Positions 58,932-64,000 of a DNA stretch of 64,000 nt are shown here, piece after piece. The notes under the pieces are model-generated. The model ran no database searches, had not been told where the DNA came from, and saw nothing but the letters and a program-made list of their open reading frames with translations. A program made the translations under genes and the position numbers. This stretch comes from a virus. The DNA is taken from positions 25,551 through 89,550 of the IMG/VR virus record IMGVR_UViG_3300010885_049871; one strand, given 5' to 3'. Positions within the stretch are counted from its first letter, which is position 1, and each line of letters opens with the position of its first letter.

Positions 58932-59005
58932 TGGTCTCAGTAGCAGGAATCGAACCTACGCTCCTTGGTCCCAAACCAAGAGTGATACCATTTCACCATA
59001 CTGAG
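58932..59005 (-). tRNA. tRNA-Pro(UGG)
   Basis: Cloverleaf; anticodon arm CTTGG-TTTGGGA-CCAAG; CCA encoded. Confidence 0.92.
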
Positions 59006-59014
59006 AAAATCAAC

Positions 59015-59088
59015 TGGTACCTCGTGACAGAATCGAACTGCCGTCTGCGCTGTGTAAAAACGCGGCCCTACCATTAGACGAACGAGGC
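59015..59088 (-). tRNA. tRNA-Val(UAC)
   Basis: GCGTT-TTTACAC-AGCGC; CCA encoded. Confidence 0.9.
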
Positions 59089-59096
59089 AAAAAATA

Positions 59097-59172
59097 TGGA
59101 GCGGCTAACCGGGTTCGAACCGGTGACGTCTTGCTTGGCAAGCAAGTACTCTACCAACTGAGCTACAGCCGC
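59097..59172 (-). tRNA. tRNA-Gly(GCC)
   Basis: CTTGC-TTGCCAA-GCAAG; U73-CCA. Confidence 0.95.
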
Positions 59173-59182
59173 ATATATTAAC

Positions 59183-59258
59183 TGGTACCAAGAGACGGGA
59201 TCGAACCGCCCACACACGAATTTTCAATCCGCTGCTCTACCAACTGAGCTATCTTGGT
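59183..59258 (-). tRNA. tRNA-Phe(GAA)
   Basis: GCGGA-TTGAAAA-TTCGT; CCA. Confidence 0.93.
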
Positions 59259-59259
59259 G

Positions 59260-59334
59260 TGGTGGAAGTAAGTAGATTCGAACTACTGACCCGCAGCGTA
59301 TGAAGCTGCTGCACTACCGCTGTGCTATACTTCC
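59260..59334 (-). tRNA. tRNA-CAU (elongator Met or Ile2)
   Basis: GCAGC-TTCATAC-GCTGC; paired 1-72, so not initiator; CCA. Confidence 0.88.
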
Positions 59335-59344
59335 AGAACTGCTG

Positions 59345-59421
59345 TGGGGTATAGTATGGAATTCGAATCCATGCTGACGGAATCACAATCCGTAGTGCTG
59401 ACCGCTGACACTAACTACACC
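59345..59421 (-). tRNA. tRNA-His(GUG)
   Basis: ACGGA-TTGTGAT-TCCGT; G-1:C73; CCA. Confidence 0.92.
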
Positions 59422-59493
59422 ATAGAAAAACACACTGTACGCAACCTCTTATGCGCTGGGGTGACCAGAATTTAATCCCAATGTGTTTATCTA

Positions 59494-59569
59494 TGGTAGG
59501 ACCACCCGGACTCGAACCGGGAATTGGCAGATTAAAAGTCTGCTGTGATAACCATTTCACTATGATCCC
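59494..59569 (-). tRNA. tRNA-Lys(UUU)
   Basis: GCAGA-CTTTTAA-TCTGC; CCA. Confidence 0.94.
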
Positions 59570-59631
59570 ATTGTCAGTCGTGAATTGTCTTTCAAGTGCC
59601 AATCCAGACCGACATGGGATCTGGGTTGACA

Positions 59632-59655
59632 CTACATTTTAGCTGTTTGCTTCAT
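59632..59655 (-). CDS. Mini-ORF MKQTAKM (putative leader peptide)
   Basis: SD AGAGGT, ATG 59655, TAG 59632; between a promoter and tRNA-Lys. Confidence 0.45.
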   Translation of the reverse strand: MKQTAKM

Positions 59656-59681
59656 ATAGTACCTCTTTGGTTTAAGTTTTG

Positions 59682-59710
59682 ATTGTACAACAATTTCAGA
59701 ATGTTGTCAA
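59682..59710 (-). promoter_or_regulatory. Sigma70-type promoter for the Lys-Pro tRNA block
   Basis: TTGACA-17 nt-TACAAT. Confidence 0.75.
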
Positions 59711-59720
59711 CTGTTTTTTT

Positions 59721-59794
59721 TGGTGCCCCACGACAGAATCGAACTGCCATCACAGGATTACAAAACCAGTGTACTGCCATTGTACTAGTAGGGC
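59721..59794 (-). tRNA. tRNA-Thr(UGU)
   Basis: Loop TTTGTAA; anticodon stem has two U-U mismatches; CCA. Confidence 0.85.
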
Positions 59795-59801
59795 TAAAAA
59801 T

Positions 59802-59877
59802 TGGCTCCTCAGGTACGGATCGAACGTACGACATCTTCATTAACAGTGAAGCGCAACTACCGCTGTGCTACTGAGGA
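59802..59877 (-). tRNA. tRNA-Asn(GUU)
   Basis: CTTCA-CTGTTAA-TGAAG; G73-CCA. Confidence 0.94.
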
Positions 59878-59885
59878 ATAAAACT

Positions 59886-59973
59886 TGGCGGAATGACTCG
59901 GACTCGAACCGAGAAGCCGTTTAACCGACCGACGGCTTAGCAAGCCGCTCCAATACCATTATGGGACCATTCC
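59886..59973 (-). tRNA. tRNA-Ser(GCU)
   Basis: GCGGC-TTGCTAA-GCCGT; long variable arm; G73-CCA. Confidence 0.93.
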
Positions 59974-59989
59974 AAAAACTAACATTGCT

Positions 59990-60018
59990 ATTATATAACA
60001 GTTGACCAACAGTGTCAA
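59990..60018 (-). promoter_or_regulatory. Consensus sigma70 promoter for the Ser-Asn-Thr tRNAs
   Basis: TTGACA-17 nt-TATAAT. Confidence 0.85.
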
Positions 60019-61157
60019 CTGATATTCGCCTGCGGAAACACCGCTAGGTAATTGGTGCCTCTAATGTCGTCCAGTAGGTCAATGTAGTCTTTAAACTTGC
60101 GATACAACTCAGCATCATAACCAGCAGAGTCAATCATGCCTACAATCAATGATCTCTGGCTGTGGTCAATGTCAGTGCTGGACTCTGCCCAGGACTTAAA
60201 CGGCACCAGATGATCTACCGGCACTGAGTGCAAGCTCAAATGCGGATATCCAGATATTGTGGTAATATGCACACGCAGGCTCTGCAGTTTTGCAAATGCC
60301 ATCAGGTCCGGCAGCGCATACGCACTGGTGTGTTGCAGCACATGATTGACGGTTAGTCTTGCCTGTGGCAATTGTTGTTTGAGCAGTTGAATATTTGATT
60401 CAATATCACTCCACCGACTTGGATGTCTGACATAATCATTCATTGCACCGGTACCTTCTAGGCTGATACAGATCTCTATGTCTTTAAATTTTTGCAATGT
60501 AGTCAACAGTTTATTACCAACTTCGGTTAGATTAGTGTTAAAGCTCACAACAACATCGTTGCATCGAGGCATCAACATTTGTAAGAAGTTGACCACTTCA
60601 GGAATGATAAACGGTTCACCACCTGTGATGTTTACTCTACGAACATCGGTTGTCAGCACAGTCTGTGCAAACTGTTTGAATTCTTCATCTTTCCAGTAGT
60701 ACGGCATGTCGCCCACTGCGTTCTGAGCACCAATTTTTACAAAACGATCGTGATATTTGACACGTTCTGCGGCAATACTAGAACTTGATGCTGGGCCACA
60801 CATGATGCATTTGAGATTGCAAAAATTGCCTAGTCTTAGTTCTAAATCATAGATTGGATTGTCTGCACTGACGGCTGTGACATCCGAAGGATACCATTTA
60901 TTTTGGTGTTGTCTTAGACTAGTCCAGCCATGTTGTTCTTCTCTATAGCATTTAACACATCCTGCATGCGGTCGGCCAGCAGCCGCATCTGCTTGCATCT
61001 TTGTAGGTATATCTGCTAGATACTGATCAAACTTGGTGTAATGATGTTTAGTTTTTATTTTAAAATCTTGGTCATACTGACAACATGGCTCAATTGTGCC
61101 GTTGGCATTTACACAAATACTATGATAAGCGGCCTGACAGCTGGTCGAAGTTGACAT
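60015..61157 (-). CDS. N-terminal twitch-domain radical SAM protein inside the tRNA array
   Basis: CQAAY..PCC..CVKC; core CNLKCIMC; GGEP. Confidence 0.85.
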   Translation of the reverse strand: MSTSTSCQAAYHSICVNANGTIEPCCQYDQDFKIKTKHHYTKFDQYLADIPTKMQADAAAGRPHAGCVKCYREEQHGWTSLRQHQNKWYPSDVTAVSADNPIYDLELRLGNFCNLKCIMCGPASSSSIAAERVKYHDRFVKIGAQNAVGDMPYYWKDEEFKQFAQTVLTTDVRRVNITGGEPFIIPEVVNFLQMLMPRCNDVVVSFNTNLTEVGNKLLTTLQKFKDIEICISLEGTGAMNDYVRHPSRWSDIESNIQLLKQQLPQARLTVNHVLQHTSAYALPDLMAFAKLQSLRVHITTISGYPHLSLHSVPVDHLVPFKSWAESSTDIDHSQRSLIVGMIDSAGYDAELYRKFKDYIDLLDDIRGTNYLAVFPQANIS

Positions 61158-61216
61158 CTACGATTTCTTTCAATTTATAAAAATATTTAGCAATTGACAC
61201 AGTGTTAACATATATT

Positions 61217-61290
61217 TGGTACCATGTACAGGTAACGATCCTGTGTCTATCGGTTATCAGCCGATTGCTCTACCTTTGAGCTAACGTGGT
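61217..61290 (-). tRNA. tRNA-Ile(GAU)
   Basis: ATCGG-CTGATAA-CCGAT; atypical T-loop ATCGTTA; CCA. Confidence 0.85.
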
Positions 61291-61297
61291 ATTTGTA

Positions 61298-61371
61298 TGG
61301 CAGAGGGTACTGGGATCGAACCAGTGATGACAGAGTCAAAGTCTGTAGTGTTACCGCTACACTAACCCCCA
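61298..61371 (-). tRNA. tRNA-Gln(UUG)
   Basis: ACAGA-CTTTGAC-TCTGT; G73-CCA. Confidence 0.92.
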
Positions 61372-61379
61372 ATAAAACT

Positions 61380-61453
61380 TGGTGGAGGATGAGAGAATCG
61401 AACTCTCATAAACAGCTTGCAAAGCTGCCGTAATCCCATTATACTAATCCCCC
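61380..61453 (-). tRNA. tRNA-Ala(UGC)
   Basis: GCAGC-TTTGCAA-GCTGT; G3:U70; CCA. Confidence 0.93.
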
Positions 61454-61460
61454 GTTATCT

Positions 61461-61537
61461 TGGCCGGCCCTGAGAGACTCGAACTCCCAACCTCTGGTTT
61501 CGAAGACCAGCACTCTAATCCATTGAGTTAAGGACCG
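61461..61537 (-). tRNA. tRNA-Arg(UCG)
   Basis: CTGGT-CTTCGAA-ACCAG; CCA. Confidence 0.92.
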
Positions 61538-61542
61538 ATATT

Positions 61543-61616
61543 TGGCGTACCCACTAGGACTCGAACCTAGACTGACGGTTTTGGAGACCGCAATGCTGCC
61601 ATTACACTATGGATAC
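61543..61616 (-). tRNA. tRNA-Trp(CCA)
   Basis: GCGGT-CTCCAAA-ACCGT; G73-CCA. Confidence 0.92.
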
Positions 61617-61661: not shown

Positions 61662-62354
61662 ATGAAAAACTTTTTCTTATATCAACTTGCTCATCAAAGA
61701 CATCCAGAATATCAGCCATTGACTTCGGTGTTGCCGATACAAAATGTTAAGAATTCAATGGCAAAAAGTTTAAAAGTGCTATCAAAAGTTTCATACAACA
61801 ATGACCATGCCTTCCAGGCGTTTTCGGTCAATAGCAAATACTTTGAATTAATGGCTGAAAATCCAAAAACATTCAATGTAGATACGATACCATTGGCAAC
61901 ACTGAGACAATGGGTGTACGATCCAGAATTTGATGAATTATTAACAAAAAATTCTCATATGGAAGTAAACTTGCAAGGTGCAATTCTAAAGTTCGTTGTG
62001 TCTGAATTTTTAAACGCAATTGGAGTAGATACAACCCAAGTGTCTACCAGTCGAGCAAAATTAAACATACAAGAACCCGGTCAAATGTTTCCTTTGCACT
62101 TTGACCGAGTTCGGCACAATGATTACGATAATGCTGAAAAACAACTGGTATCCGACCCGTCACATGATAGATTTTTAATTTTTTTAGAAGATCAGCAACC
62201 GGGACAAATGTTCCAATTTGATATGTGCAATATAACCTGGTCTCAAGGAGACGTGTATACTTGGAATGCTCGAGACACCATGCATGCATCAGCAAATGCA
62301 GGATATTGGACTAGAAGACTTCTGTTGATTGATGTTGGTAAAACATCATGCTGA
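61662..62354 (+). CDS. 2OG-Fe(II) oxygenase-like protein
   Basis: Q.PGQMFPLHFD ... MHASAN.G..R; start at MKNFF. Confidence 0.65.
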   Translation: MKNFFLYQLAHQRHPEYQPLTSVLPIQNVKNSMAKSLKVLSKVSYNNDHAFQAFSVNSKYFELMAENPKTFNVDTIPLATLRQWVYDPEFDELLTKNSHMEVNLQGAILKFVVSEFLNAIGVDTTQVSTSRAKLNIQEPGQMFPLHFDRVRHNDYDNAEKQLVSDPSHDRFLIFLEDQQPGQMFQFDMCNITWSQGDVYTWNARDTMHASANAGYWTRRLLLIDVGKTSC

Positions 62355-62404
62355 ATTTGTCAACATTCTAATGCACATCGAGTTTGCCCCTAAATAAATA
62401 CTGG

Positions 62405-63013
62405 ATGAAACTAGAATTTACTCCAGTGACTGATATTTTGTATACCGTCAATTATGATGACAAAACAATATTGGATCAAATATTTTTACAATTGCCCACA
62501 GCACCATGGCTATTTTGGCCGCCAGCAGATGGAAATGCAAAAAATGCTATAGATATTATTGACGTCGCTGACACCCACCTGTTGTCAGCAGAAATGCAAA
62601 CTTTTGAATCTTGGGTACACAGTGAAGATTTTAAACAACAGATATTGAACTTGTTGTTTGCAAACTCAGAATTTATGGATATATGGGGACAACCACAGCG
62701 TGAACTGTTTGATGCAGTGACCCGAGTCAGTGCTGGATGGGTTCGTACTCCGCCCAACTGTGCCAATTATTCCTGGCATCTTGATTGTCGTAGCCAAGTG
62801 GCACTTGGCATGATTTATTTTATACAAGGCGATGATCCCGGACAAAGTACCTACTTTGATACTGTTCCCAACACAACACATCAACGTATCCCTACCGGAT
62901 TGGGTCGGGGTTGGTTTGTAATAAACCATCACCGCGCCCGGCATTGTGCAATGAATGATACTGATCAACACAGACACTGTTTAAAATTTACACTAAACTT
63001 GAACGTTTTATAA
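62405..63013 (+). CDS. 2OG-Fe(II) oxygenase-like protein
   Basis: WHLD ... RHCAMN...R; similar to 26790-27338; ATAAATA 4 nt before the ATG. Confidence 0.6.
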   Translation: MKLEFTPVTDILYTVNYDDKTILDQIFLQLPTAPWLFWPPADGNAKNAIDIIDVADTHLLSAEMQTFESWVHSEDFKQQILNLLFANSEFMDIWGQPQRELFDAVTRVSAGWVRTPPNCANYSWHLDCRSQVALGMIYFIQGDDPGQSTYFDTVPNTTHQRIPTGLGRGWFVINHHRARHCAMNDTDQHRHCLKFTLNLNVL

Positions 63014-63092
63014 TCTTCTGCACCTGCATCTATACATTTTAAAACACGCCATCTGCGGTATCGCAACCCAGGCCAGCTTGGTATGTTTTAGA

Positions 63093-63235
63093 ATGCAGTG
63101 TGTTGCCACACCACATGACGGGGTTGATACCCCGCCCAGGAGTCTTACTAGAATGTTGTCGCCACTCGTTCATGTGTCCTGTCCGCCCGTTTGCCTGTTT
63201 TATTGTGCTGGCCGAATCCTCGTTACTCATTGCAC
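63093..63235 (-). ncRNA. Candidate ~140-nt structured ncRNA of unknown family
   Basis: CACATGA/TCATGTG stem, GCGGGG/CCCCGT hairpin, GTGTG-GCAA-CACAC hairpin, possible CAGGA/TCCTG pseudoknot. Confidence 0.5.
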
Positions 63236-63237
63236 AT

Positions 63238-63274
63238 AAAGAAAAACCCTGGAGTTTTTAGTTCCAGGGTCTTT
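63238..63274 (-). terminator. Intrinsic terminator (attenuator 3:4 hairpin)
   Basis: GACCCTGGA-ACTAAAAAC-TCCAGGGT-TTTTCTTT. Confidence 0.8.
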
Positions 63275-63295
63275 GAAGTTTGTCGGTTACTGCTG

Positions 63296-63427
63296 TTATG
63301 CGCAACTGCTGCCTTCTCGGACCCTGTGATTTGCTGTAATATTCTTGCCACGGCCAAAACCGCGTGACCACGGCTGAGCCAGGGTCGTTACGCGATGCAT
63401 GGGGCTAAAAATATTGGTGTTCATCAT
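63296..63427 (-). CDS. 43-aa putative leader peptide
   Basis: MMNTNIFSPMHRVTTLAQPWSRGFGRGKNITANHRVREGSSCA*; directly after a promoter; contains both alternative pairing segments. Confidence 0.55.
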   Translation of the reverse strand: MMNTNIFSPMHRVTTLAQPWSRGFGRGKNITANHRVREGSSCA

Positions 63428-63434
63428 AAGTCCT

Positions 63435-63463
63435 ATTGTATGTTATTTATCATTCAGTGTCAA
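63435..63463 (-). promoter_or_regulatory. Sigma70 promoter with embedded ATAAATA late-type motif
   Basis: TTGACA-17 nt-TACAAT; ATAAATA at 63450-63444. Confidence 0.8.
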
Positions 63464-63481
63464 CCACTGACGATTTGTTAT

Positions 63482-63555
63482 TGGTTGCGGGTGACAGATT
63501 TGAACTGCCGATGCTCCTGGCTTATGAGACCGGAGTGGTGACCACCCTACCCGCG
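63482..63555 (-). tRNA. Atypical initiator-like tRNA-Met(CAU) with minimal D-arm
   Basis: C1:A72 mismatch; loop CTCATAA; D-arm GGTG-GT-CACC; CCA. Confidence 0.7.
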
Positions 63556-63597
63556 AAATTATTTATCTATATCAAACTGCACTGCTGAGATTTAACC

Positions 63598-63689
63598 TGG
63601 TACCAGCGGAGGGAATTGAACCCTCTCAAGAACGCTAATCTGGCGCTAAAAGGTCTATAAGGCCTCTCTGACTTCCAAGTCTCGCTGGC
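63598..63689 (-). tRNA. Atypical tRNA with UAU anticodon, short D-arm and long variable arm
   Basis: GCCAGCG/CGCTGGT-A-CCA; loop CTTATAG; V-arm AGCGC/GCGTT; T-arm GAGGG-TTCAATT-CCCTC. Confidence 0.7.
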
Positions 63690-63697
63690 ATATTGAA

Positions 63698-63917
63698 TTT
63701 GTTAGAGTAGCAGCACCACGTTATTGCTGCCATTCACCCGAATTAACAAGCTCGAGCGGGAGTCGGTAAGTTACTTGGGATACCGGTCCAGTTTAGTCGC
63801 CTCAATGGACCCCTGCAGTTCCCCGCAGGGTGGGTGTCGAACCCATGACCTTCTACTGTTTTGGTCCTTCGAAGAAACCTAGACAGCGTGACTTTCTCTT
63901 GCTAACACTCTAACAAA
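63698..63917 (-). ncRNA. Candidate ~220-nt multibranch ncRNA
   Basis: Closing stem TTTGTTAGAGT/ACTCTAACAAA; six or more internal hairpins including T-arm-like TGGGTTCGACACCCA. Confidence 0.6.
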
Positions 63918-64000
63918 ACTAATCAAGAGCTTGTAGACCAAACTACAATTTACCGGTTTCTAGACGAACTCTTAAACTTGGTGGTTAGTGCTGTTGCGAC

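Follow-up and report, generated by a model that had tools for sequence, protein, structure and literature searches.

The last 64 kb of an 89,550-base virus record in IMG/VR (IMGVR_UViG_3300010885_049871), which is rated 26% complete, constitute the stretch of 64,000 nucleotides that is referred to below as the window. Toward one end of the window, on the minus strand and within a region of tRNA genes, lies a compact module composed of a sigma-70-type promoter (63435-63463), an open reading frame (ORF) of 43 codons (63296-63427) and an intrinsic terminator (63241-63271). A tRNA-Met gene is located at 63482-63555, with further RNA genes upstream as far as the contig end; past the terminator lie a structured RNA, which we term RNA X (63032-63235), and an array of tRNA genes. 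The original prediction for this locus held that the ORF encodes a leader peptide whose translation controls termination ahead of the tRNA and non-coding RNA (ncRNA) array, by means of four mutually complementary RNA segments deployed as in the trp and his operons. The promoter, ORF and terminator were confirmed on the minus strand at these positions, as were the four complementary segments: segment 1, GACCCTGG (63386-63379), segment 2, CAGGGTC (63326-63320), segment 3, GACCCTGGA (63271-63263), and segment 4, TCCAGGGT (63253-63246), followed by TTTTT. Here we present a comparative analysis of this module across related phages.

A blastn search of the GenBank phage collection with positions 62900-64000 recovered no match, and all the relatives used below come from IMG/VR, where individual loci are designated by L numbers. 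The locus L002, reached via a neighboring protein, possesses the same element with an identical terminator. A search with the exact terminator yielded 19 loci, a degenerate terminator pattern 61 loci, a pattern freeing the stem base 94 stretches, and a peptide pattern 11 matches. After removal of duplicates these amounted to 38 unique small-ORF modules from freshwater jumbo-phage contigs. The holders of the stretch are themselves freshwater and lake metagenomes, and the presence of a relative on a contig of 342,865 bases indicates that the window derives from a jumbo phage of roughly 340 kb. L100, an ordinary gene tail that had passed the ORF filter, was left out of every count, and L018, for which the minimum-energy fold gave no segment 2, was left out of the 18-module composition, pair-table and segment 1 counts. 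Terminators of the same family also occur behind ordinary long genes, and 13 of these served as natural controls. In L036, L037, L049, L051, L057, L062, L071 and about 25 further loci, many of them small contigs, a terminator of this family, with its loop, ends a gene for a product that terminates in ...DSC.S.GFKL...

The promoter consists of TTGACA (63463-63458) and TACAAT (63440-63435) separated by 17 nt, and scores 11/12 in a promoter scan. Its spacer (63441-63457) carries GATAAATAA, whose TAAATAA core recurs in the spacers of nearly all related modules. This core resembles the T4 late promoter TATAAATA, and it may represent a second, phage-specific promoter overlapping the host-type one. 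A similar sequence, TTAAATAC, was also observed downstream of the same terminator behind ordinary genes.

The leader ORF runs from an ATG at 63427 to a TAA stop at 63298-63296 and specifies the peptide MMNTNIFSPMHRVTTLAQPWSRGFGRGKNITANHRVREGSSCA. Its ATG lies 7 nt past the -10 box, which leaves no room for a Shine-Dalgarno sequence, so that the mRNA would be leaderless if translated. As the original prediction requires, the ORF is retained throughout: an ATG-started frame of 20-50 codons is present in 38 of the 38 unique modules, its stop falls 17-32 nt upstream of segment 3 in every one, and in most the ATG follows the -10 box by 5-10 nt. Five modules (L007, L008, L011, L067 and L080) possess a 5' untranslated region with a Shine-Dalgarno box instead of the leaderless start, and the occurrence of both types of start argues for selected translation of the leader ORF. 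The peptide itself is weakly conserved, with a mean column identity of 38% and near-invariance limited to the initiator Met and a single Trp, though the motifs WS[HR][AG][FY] and NSIPG are common to the leaders. Searches of Pfam and PHROG with the 43-residue peptide found no match. Synonymous and non-synonymous codon changes number 10:12 between the window and L004, 2:7 between L008 and L011, and 2:5 between L031 and L032, and these close pairs display little or no synonymous excess.

The terminator is formed by segment 3, GACCCUGGA (63271-63263), a 9-nt loop, ACUAAAAAC, segment 4, UCCAGGGU (63253-63246), and a U-run (63245-63241), with a G+C-rich stem of 8 bp. It was missed by the automated scan on account of this 9-nt loop, because the scan is limited to loops of 3-8 nt. 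Its stem covaries in relatives (CUGGA/UCCAG, CCGGA/UCCGG, CUGGG/CCCAG and CCGGG/CCCGG) while the 9-nt loop is near-invariant across the family, which suggests that the terminator hairpin does more than terminate transcription. The sequence that follows the terminator is not preceded by a promoter of its own; either RNA X or a gene led by a Shine-Dalgarno box begins about 5-35 nt past the U-run.

The strand that competes for the 5' arm of this terminator is segment 2 (CAGGGUC in the RNA; 63320-63326), which occupies codons 34-36 of the ORF and lies 21 nt upstream of the stop codon. In every module for which segment 2 was called, it falls within the ORF and ends 1-28 nt before the stop. A GGGUC motif is present 36-59 nt upstream of segment 3 in nearly all modules and in none of the control terminators behind ordinary genes. 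It is found in three reading frames, GGG UCN, NGG GUC and G GGU C (encoding GS, RV and GGL, respectively), and is hence conserved as RNA and not as protein. For 33 modules, each accompanied by 30 mononucleotide shuffles of the upstream part, and for the 13 control terminators, we predicted the fold of the nascent RNA, which in the modules runs from the AUG up to and including segment 3. GACCC of segment 3 pairs with the motif with a probability of at least 0.75 in 31 of the 33 modules, and of at least 0.9 in 28 of them; the stabilization gained by pairing is 7.6-18.3 kcal/mol in those 31, as against shuffle means of 2.2-5.0 kcal/mol. The control terminators give probabilities of 0.08-0.50 and stabilizations of 0-6.5 kcal/mol. 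For the window the corresponding values are 1.00 and 13.5 kcal/mol.

The same pairing emerges from a table of base pairs compiled on anchored positions across 37 modules, in which 292 of 333 cells are canonical, versus 65-201 in registers slid by 1-3 positions. The core is flanked by a C-G pair in 19 modules, by U-A in 12, by U.G in two, by G-C in one and by the mismatch C.A in three, among them the window. Compensatory variants occur as well, in the form of AACCC with GGGUU (L080, L122) and GACGCCC with GGGUGUC (L101), and GGCCC is accommodated by GGGUC through a U.G pair (L085, L095/L111). The helix is lengthened to 13-14 bp in L043/L058 and L063, and in L105, which has a wholly different terminator stem, a 12-bp partner overlaps the stop codon. 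Compensatory changes, which the original prediction proposed as a check, are found in the terminator stem and in the variants of the 2:3 helix. In the window's full-length leader RNA the two outcomes are nearly isoenergetic, the terminator fold being at -59.1 kcal/mol and the forced antiterminator fold at -58.6 kcal/mol. The 193-nt RNA is also strongly structured in its own right, its fold of -59.1 kcal/mol corresponding to z = -3.78 with none of 200 shuffles as good.

Segment 1 presents a different picture. In the window its duplex with segment 2 is predicted at -14.0 kcal/mol, better than 99% of shuffles and equal to that of segments 2 and 3 (-13.9 kcal/mol). However, an upstream partner for segment 2 that outperforms 95% of shuffles is found in only 3 of 37 modules, which is the chance level, and is absent in the closest relatives of the window. 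Accordingly, the promoter, the ORF and segments 2, 3 and 4 are conserved and non-random, whereas segment 1, though real in the window, is not conserved in the family, and we discarded the four-segment trp/his model as a conserved feature. Without a conserved segment 1, the module is of three-part design in place of the four-part trp geometry. Moreover, the ribosome-free nascent RNA already folds into the 2:3 pairing, so that the default state without translation would be read-through and not super-attenuation. What survives of the attenuator logic originally put forward is the promoter, the retained short ORF, the terminator and a conserved antiterminator strand that forms part of that reading frame.

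Segment 1 instead forms, in the fold predicted for the window, the 5' arm of an inner hairpin (63396-63359) within a 5' structured domain of the leader RNA (63338-63415). The 3' arm of this hairpin carries the single Trp codon (63370-63368), and relatives possess at the same place a hairpin of other sequence (CCAGGC...GCCUGG). One may conjecture that this conserved hairpin over the Trp codon is a pause hairpin. We also considered whether the single conserved Trp codon could be a sensor, given that tRNA-Trp is often the first or second tRNA downstream, but this was not established; the idea is weakened by the location of the codon in the 3' arm of the hairpin, by the lack of Trp in L085 and L105, and by the relatedness of the loci by descent. 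A further small hairpin, GUUGC-GCAUAACAGCA-GUAAC (63286-63306), folds around the stop codon inside the loop closed by the 2:3 helix, and stem sequences that differ from it were recognized by eye at the same place in relatives.

The amino acid composition of the leaders was compared with the tRNA genes that follow the module. In the window, all 15 amino acid types of the downstream tRNAs are present in the 43-residue leader, and 93% of its residues belong to the downstream tRNA set, as compared to 75% expected from phage protein composition (p = 0.003). A coverage test was applied to the 25 modules with at least 8 downstream tRNAs, the other 13 of the 38 being left out; coverage is complete in 19 and lacks one type in 6. 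A depletion test covered the 18 modules followed by 4 kb of sequence or more, 20 of the 38 being left out for having less than 4 kb or fewer than 8 tRNAs. Before segment 2, residues for which there is no downstream tRNA number 55 versus 120.3 expected (observed/expected ratio 0.46), whereas from segment 2 onward they number 26 versus 25.4 expected (ratio 1.02). When the tRNA sets were permuted among modules, none of 5000 permutations gave a value as low. At the level of codons, 71% are readable by a downstream tRNA under plain wobble before segment 2 versus 51% in the tail (p = 2e-5). Tyr occurs upstream of segment 2 in all 10 modules that have tRNA-Tyr downstream and in none of the 8 without, with a flip between Phe and Tyr at the aligned last position of WS[HR][AG][F/Y]; a conservative count for Tyr gives 14 lineages (7 versus 7). 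Pooling Asp, Glu and Tyr results in the table [[18,2],[4,30]] (Fisher p = 1e-8).

A second type of module provides a comparison within single genomes. Four phages (L002, L008, L011 and L129) possess, in addition to the window-type module, a leaderless ORF of 32-35 codons that contains AYE.DC in all four. The example in L002 (6900-7095, minus strand) comprises a promoter, a leaderless ORF of 32 codons and a different terminator, AGACCCGC....GCGGGU, together with an in-ORF look-alike of the 3' arm of that terminator. Between the second module and the window-type module lie the tRNAs for Glu, Tyr and Asp, plus Cys in two of the phages, and the window-type leaders of the same four phages have no Tyr, Glu or Asp before segment 2. 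In four of four phages, the amino acids are therefore partitioned between the two leaders of one genome in the same way as between the tRNA blocks behind them. The corresponding region of the window's own phage falls beyond the end of the contig.

The anatomy of the module, its conservation, the alternative pairing, the synteny with tRNA genes and the match in composition together point to a three-part, leaderless, ribosome-dependent (leader-peptide) transcription attenuator, a reading that we consider probable. Translation of the leader ORF, its coupling to transcription, and how and to what the module would respond in nature are predicted from these features as follows. Host RNA polymerase would start at or beside the AUG, and a ribosome would load once the 5' end emerges. 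If no ribosome is at segment 2 when segment 3 (GACCCUG) is made, the two would pair, and the resulting helix would enclose the stop-codon hairpin in a closed domain and sequester the terminator's 5' arm. Polymerase would then read through into RNA X and, in the ancestral contiguous layout, the tRNA genes. With brisk translation to the end of the ORF, segment 2 would be melted or occluded; the ribosome would stop 24 nt before segment 3, leaving the terminator free, and termination would release a leader RNA of about 185 nt. The ribosome would itself take the part that segment 1 plays in the four-part scheme. Because a ribosome at the end of the ORF must open the 2:3 helix and is too far upstream to block the terminator, the caveat attached to the original prediction regarding the distance of the stop codon is answered by this arrangement. 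The codons upstream of segment 2 would sample the amino acids of the downstream tRNAs, such that a shortage of any sampled tRNA would slow the ribosome and turn the array on, and the newly made tRNAs would turn it off. Starvation or host tRNA-cleaving defenses, as suggested in the original prediction, may be the natural trigger. The more specific proposal, in which jumbo phages maintain a homeostat over their own supply of tRNAs by placing each tRNA block behind a leaderless test ORF that samples its amino acids once each, stands in our judgment at an even chance.

The genes past the terminator bear directly on how far this scheme applies to the window. RNA X, the first product past the terminator, is conserved in 18 loci. 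In relatives with a contiguous layout it fills the entire gap of 181-271 nt between the terminator and the first tRNA; in L009, the closest of these, tRNA-Trp lies 205 nt past the terminator. The first hairpin of RNA X keeps an AACGAG-type loop on stems of differing sequence. The RNA is closed by a long helix, CAUUCUAAAAC / GUUUUAGAAUG, the end of which coincides in contiguous relatives with the start of the first tRNA. The options for its role include tRNA-precursor processing or assistance to polymerase in traversing the array. Neither the leader nor RNA X matched an Rfam family at E <= 1, and a 63-residue ORF overlying RNA X, the frame of which is lost in L027, had no match in Pfam or PHROG. 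In eight loci (L012, L017, L033, L055, L058, L063, L064 and L067) a Shine-Dalgarno-led gene takes the place of RNA X behind the module and is itself followed by tRNAs; the encoded protein is helical, about 51-60 residues long, with a common ...K[IL][ED]RA... motif. A scan of 16 further loci with ARAGORN found a same-strand tRNA array downstream in all 16, within about 0.2-0.6 kb.

In the window two genes on the plus strand (62384-63013 and approximately 61662-62354) intervene between RNA X and tRNA-Trp. Both display, by eye, an HxD-type motif; they found no match in Pfam or PHROG, but the region shows 38% identity to a protein of L002, and L002 and L026 have one such opposite-strand gene in the corresponding position. 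The window's two genes are flanked on either side by a copy of the RNA X 3' end (63045-63032 and approximately 61625-61613), the 13-nt TTTTA[A/G]AATGTAT. This duplication, taken with contiguous relatives such as L009, leads us to read the opposite-strand genes as an insertion that split RNA X from tRNA-Trp. A TTGGCA-19-TAGAAT sequence ahead of tRNA-Trp was entertained as a promoter, but the duplication of the RNA X 3' end accounts for it more simply. At the end of one opposite-strand gene, a promoter-like TTTACA-16-TATAAT (62987-63014, plus strand; 11/12) faces RNA X and the leader and would give rise to antisense RNA. The tRNA array beyond (58932-61616, minus strand) comprises Trp, Arg, Ala, Gln, Ile, a radical-SAM gene, Ser, Asn, Thr, Lys, His, Met, Phe, Gly, Val and Pro. 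That the module gates a tRNA/ncRNA array, as originally proposed, holds for the family, in which ncRNA and same-strand tRNAs follow it, and in the window holds directly only for RNA X.

Several other elements of the neighborhood were recorded. Within the array, 59575-59710 (minus strand) contains a near-consensus TTGACA-17-TACAAT, a Shine-Dalgarno box and a 7-codon ORF, MKQTAKM, followed by a hairpin without a U-run just ahead of tRNA-Lys, His and Met, and may be another, different leader. Upstream of the module, 63602-63689 (minus strand) is tRNA-like, with a weak match to tRNA-Sec (25.8 bits versus a threshold of 47 bits) and no call by ARAGORN; L002 has a tRNA-Cys at the matching place. Farther upstream, an ornate RNA (63698-63917, minus strand) shows 83% identity to L002 over 136 nt. 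It had no match in Rfam and no blastn similarity to the GOLLD loci of L011 and L014, the only two of nine loci scanned in which GOLLD lies upstream of the module. Its summed contig depths in the metatranscriptomes described next reach about 9 x 10^4, far above those of the rest of the stretch.

Four lake metatranscriptome runs contain contigs that map to the stretch. One run (X16) has a 182-nt contig over 63242-63423 and another from a different study (X15) a 163-nt contig over 63245-63404, both of which span the leader from just inside the AUG to the U-run and hint weakly at the existence of a discrete, terminated leader RNA. A 108-nt contig (63163-63270) that crosses the terminator was not counted as read-through RNA, as it includes only 29 nt upstream of the U-run, and neither the uncovered parts nor an apparent drop in summed contig depth past the terminator were counted as evidence. 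One X15 contig joins tRNA-Met to the terminator (63274/63482), skipping the 207 nt with the promoter and leader, and points to some relative that has the terminator but not the module.

A number of observations weigh against the attenuator reading or narrow its reach. The metatranscriptome contigs show neither true RNA ends nor strand. In the window the tRNAs are about 1.6 kb from the module, with opposite-strand coding DNA between, and the later tRNA blocks are equipped with consensus promoters of their own (60018 and 59710), so that at most part of the window's tRNA output would depend on read-through. Covariation within the 7-bp core of the 2:3 helix is weak (score 0.133 versus 0.116, with 14 of 500 shuffles as high and 92.6% of positions paired), which follows from the near-invariance of the GGGUC:GACCC core. 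RNAalifold recovered no consensus pairs from a MAFFT alignment of 23 truncated leaders; as this alignment places segment 2 one or two columns off register, we relied on pair counts at anchored positions and in a shorter alignment. With respect to composition, the per-module coverage p-values are only 0.03-0.52, the statistics treat related modules as independent with no correction for phylogeny, and leader similarity did not resolve the number of independent Phe/Tyr switches. The match at the level of codons is partial, 35 UCN Ser codons having no matching downstream tRNA, and the leaders contain no runs of regulatory codons, unlike those of trp or his.

Some of these points are equally what would be expected of an attenuator that reports on general translation capacity, be it ribosome availability, host shut-off or leaderless initiation, with the composition match a by-product of shared ancestry. 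The lack of codon runs and the sampling of each amino acid just once or a few times are compatible with it, as are the partial codon-level match, the uncorrected composition statistics, the ribosome-free default of read-through and the conservation of the leaderless start. Against it stand the restriction of the depletion to the part before segment 2, for which the tail is an internal control and which 0 of 5000 permutations of the tRNA sets matched, and the partition of Tyr, Glu and Asp between the two leaders of each genome in four of four phages. We consider a purely general sensor unlikely.

Explanations that dispense with attenuation fare worse. The module could be an ordinary small-protein gene with its own promoter and terminator, in which GGGUC is kept for another reason and the downstream genes are expressed from elsewhere. 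The unfailing retention of the ORF, the shared WS[HR][AG][FY] and NSIPG motifs, the mild synonymous excess in the closest group (10 versus 12) and the fact that the same terminator family ends ordinary genes would agree with this, but the peptide is poorly conserved and matches no family, GGGUC occurs in three frames, the strong alternative pairing is absent from the control terminators, composition tracks the downstream tRNAs, and there is no promoter before RNA X or the following Shine-Dalgarno-led genes; we hold this to be very unlikely. The least likely reading, to our mind, takes the terminated leader RNA of about 185 nt for the final product of the locus, a small RNA that acts in trans or has a dual function and whose two folds tune its own activity or stability and not transcription downstream. 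In its favor are the pronounced structure of the RNA (z = -3.78), the discrete contigs of about this length in the lake metatranscriptomes, and a reported precedent for an attenuator-derived small RNA acting in trans, rnTrpL of Sinorhizobium (PMC7968998). No target or seed is known for it, and the retention of the ORF, the composition match and the position ahead of tRNA arrays would be left unexplained. In any event, a role of this kind could coexist with attenuation and does not contradict it.

Among known systems, the leader-peptide attenuation that we favor has its closest counterparts in the enterobacterial leaders trpL, hisL, leuL and pheL and the multivalent leaders thrL and that of ilvGMEDA. 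Like the phage module these combine a short ORF close to the promoter with an intrinsic terminator and an antiterminator helix that excludes it. In them the position of the ribosome determines which of the two forms, and slow decoding leads to read-through, as would be the case in the phage module; the thr and ilv leaders also sample several amino acids. They regulate genes for enzymes, whereas the genes behind the phage module are tRNAs and ncRNA. The phage version further differs in being phage-borne, in lacking runs of regulatory codons, in its leaderless mRNA and in the location of segment 2 inside the ORF; it has three parts rather than four, with no conserved segment 1 and no super-attenuated state. 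T-boxes of Gram-positive bacteria, which control synthetase and amino acid genes, are terminator/antiterminator switches that report on the state of the tRNA pool, as is proposed for the phage module, but they bind uncharged tRNA directly and need no translation. No T-box model matched the region, in which only tRNA and tmRNA-type Rfam families were detected at E <= 1.

The leaders of bmrCD, mef/mel and erm-type resistance genes are reported to sense drug-bound ribosomes through specific nascent peptides (PMC4191407, PMC4335068, PMC8274638). There a ribosome stalled in a short ORF remodels the RNA and relieves a terminator or a sequestered start in response to impaired translation, much as would happen in the phage module. 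The phage leaders differ in that no arrest motif is conserved and their composition follows the downstream tRNA set. The trn operon of Anabaena PCC 7120 is reported to be a long, horizontally spread tRNA array, silent by default and induced by impaired translation (PMC8421152), under the control of the ribbon-helix-helix repressor TrcR (PMC10272220). It resembles the phage arrays as a supernumerary set of tRNAs, with induction when translation is impaired; it differs in employing a repressor protein in place of a leader ORF and terminator, and in its residence on a bacterial megaplasmid and not in a phage. Full-text literature searches turned up no report of tRNA genes, whether of phages or of cells, under leader-peptide attenuation, the Anabaena array being the nearest published case. 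The mechanism proposed is classical; what is new is its target, the multivalent sampling by single codons, the leaderless start and the three-part layout.

The purpose of the large tRNA sets of phages is debated, with codon compensation, replacement of tRNAs after shut-off and escape from tRNA-cleaving defenses among the possibilities raised (PMC10264068, PMC11555353), and no description of how phage tRNA genes are regulated was found in the literature searched. The present family offers several internal comparisons for addressing this issue, namely the identical terminators of ordinary genes, which act as natural controls, an in-ORF antiterminator strand kept in three frames, the contrast in composition between tail and body of the leader, and the pair of leaders within one genome. 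As the module is short and self-contained and has a host-type promoter, it can be tested without phage culture. If the proposal is correct, it would constitute the first case of leader-peptide attenuation of tRNA genes and would endow these phages with a built-in sensor of host tRNA depletion, including that caused by anticodon-nuclease defenses. The phage would, in effect, measure decoding in real time and supply tRNAs on demand, and attenuation would be extended from genes for enzymes to the translation apparatus itself.

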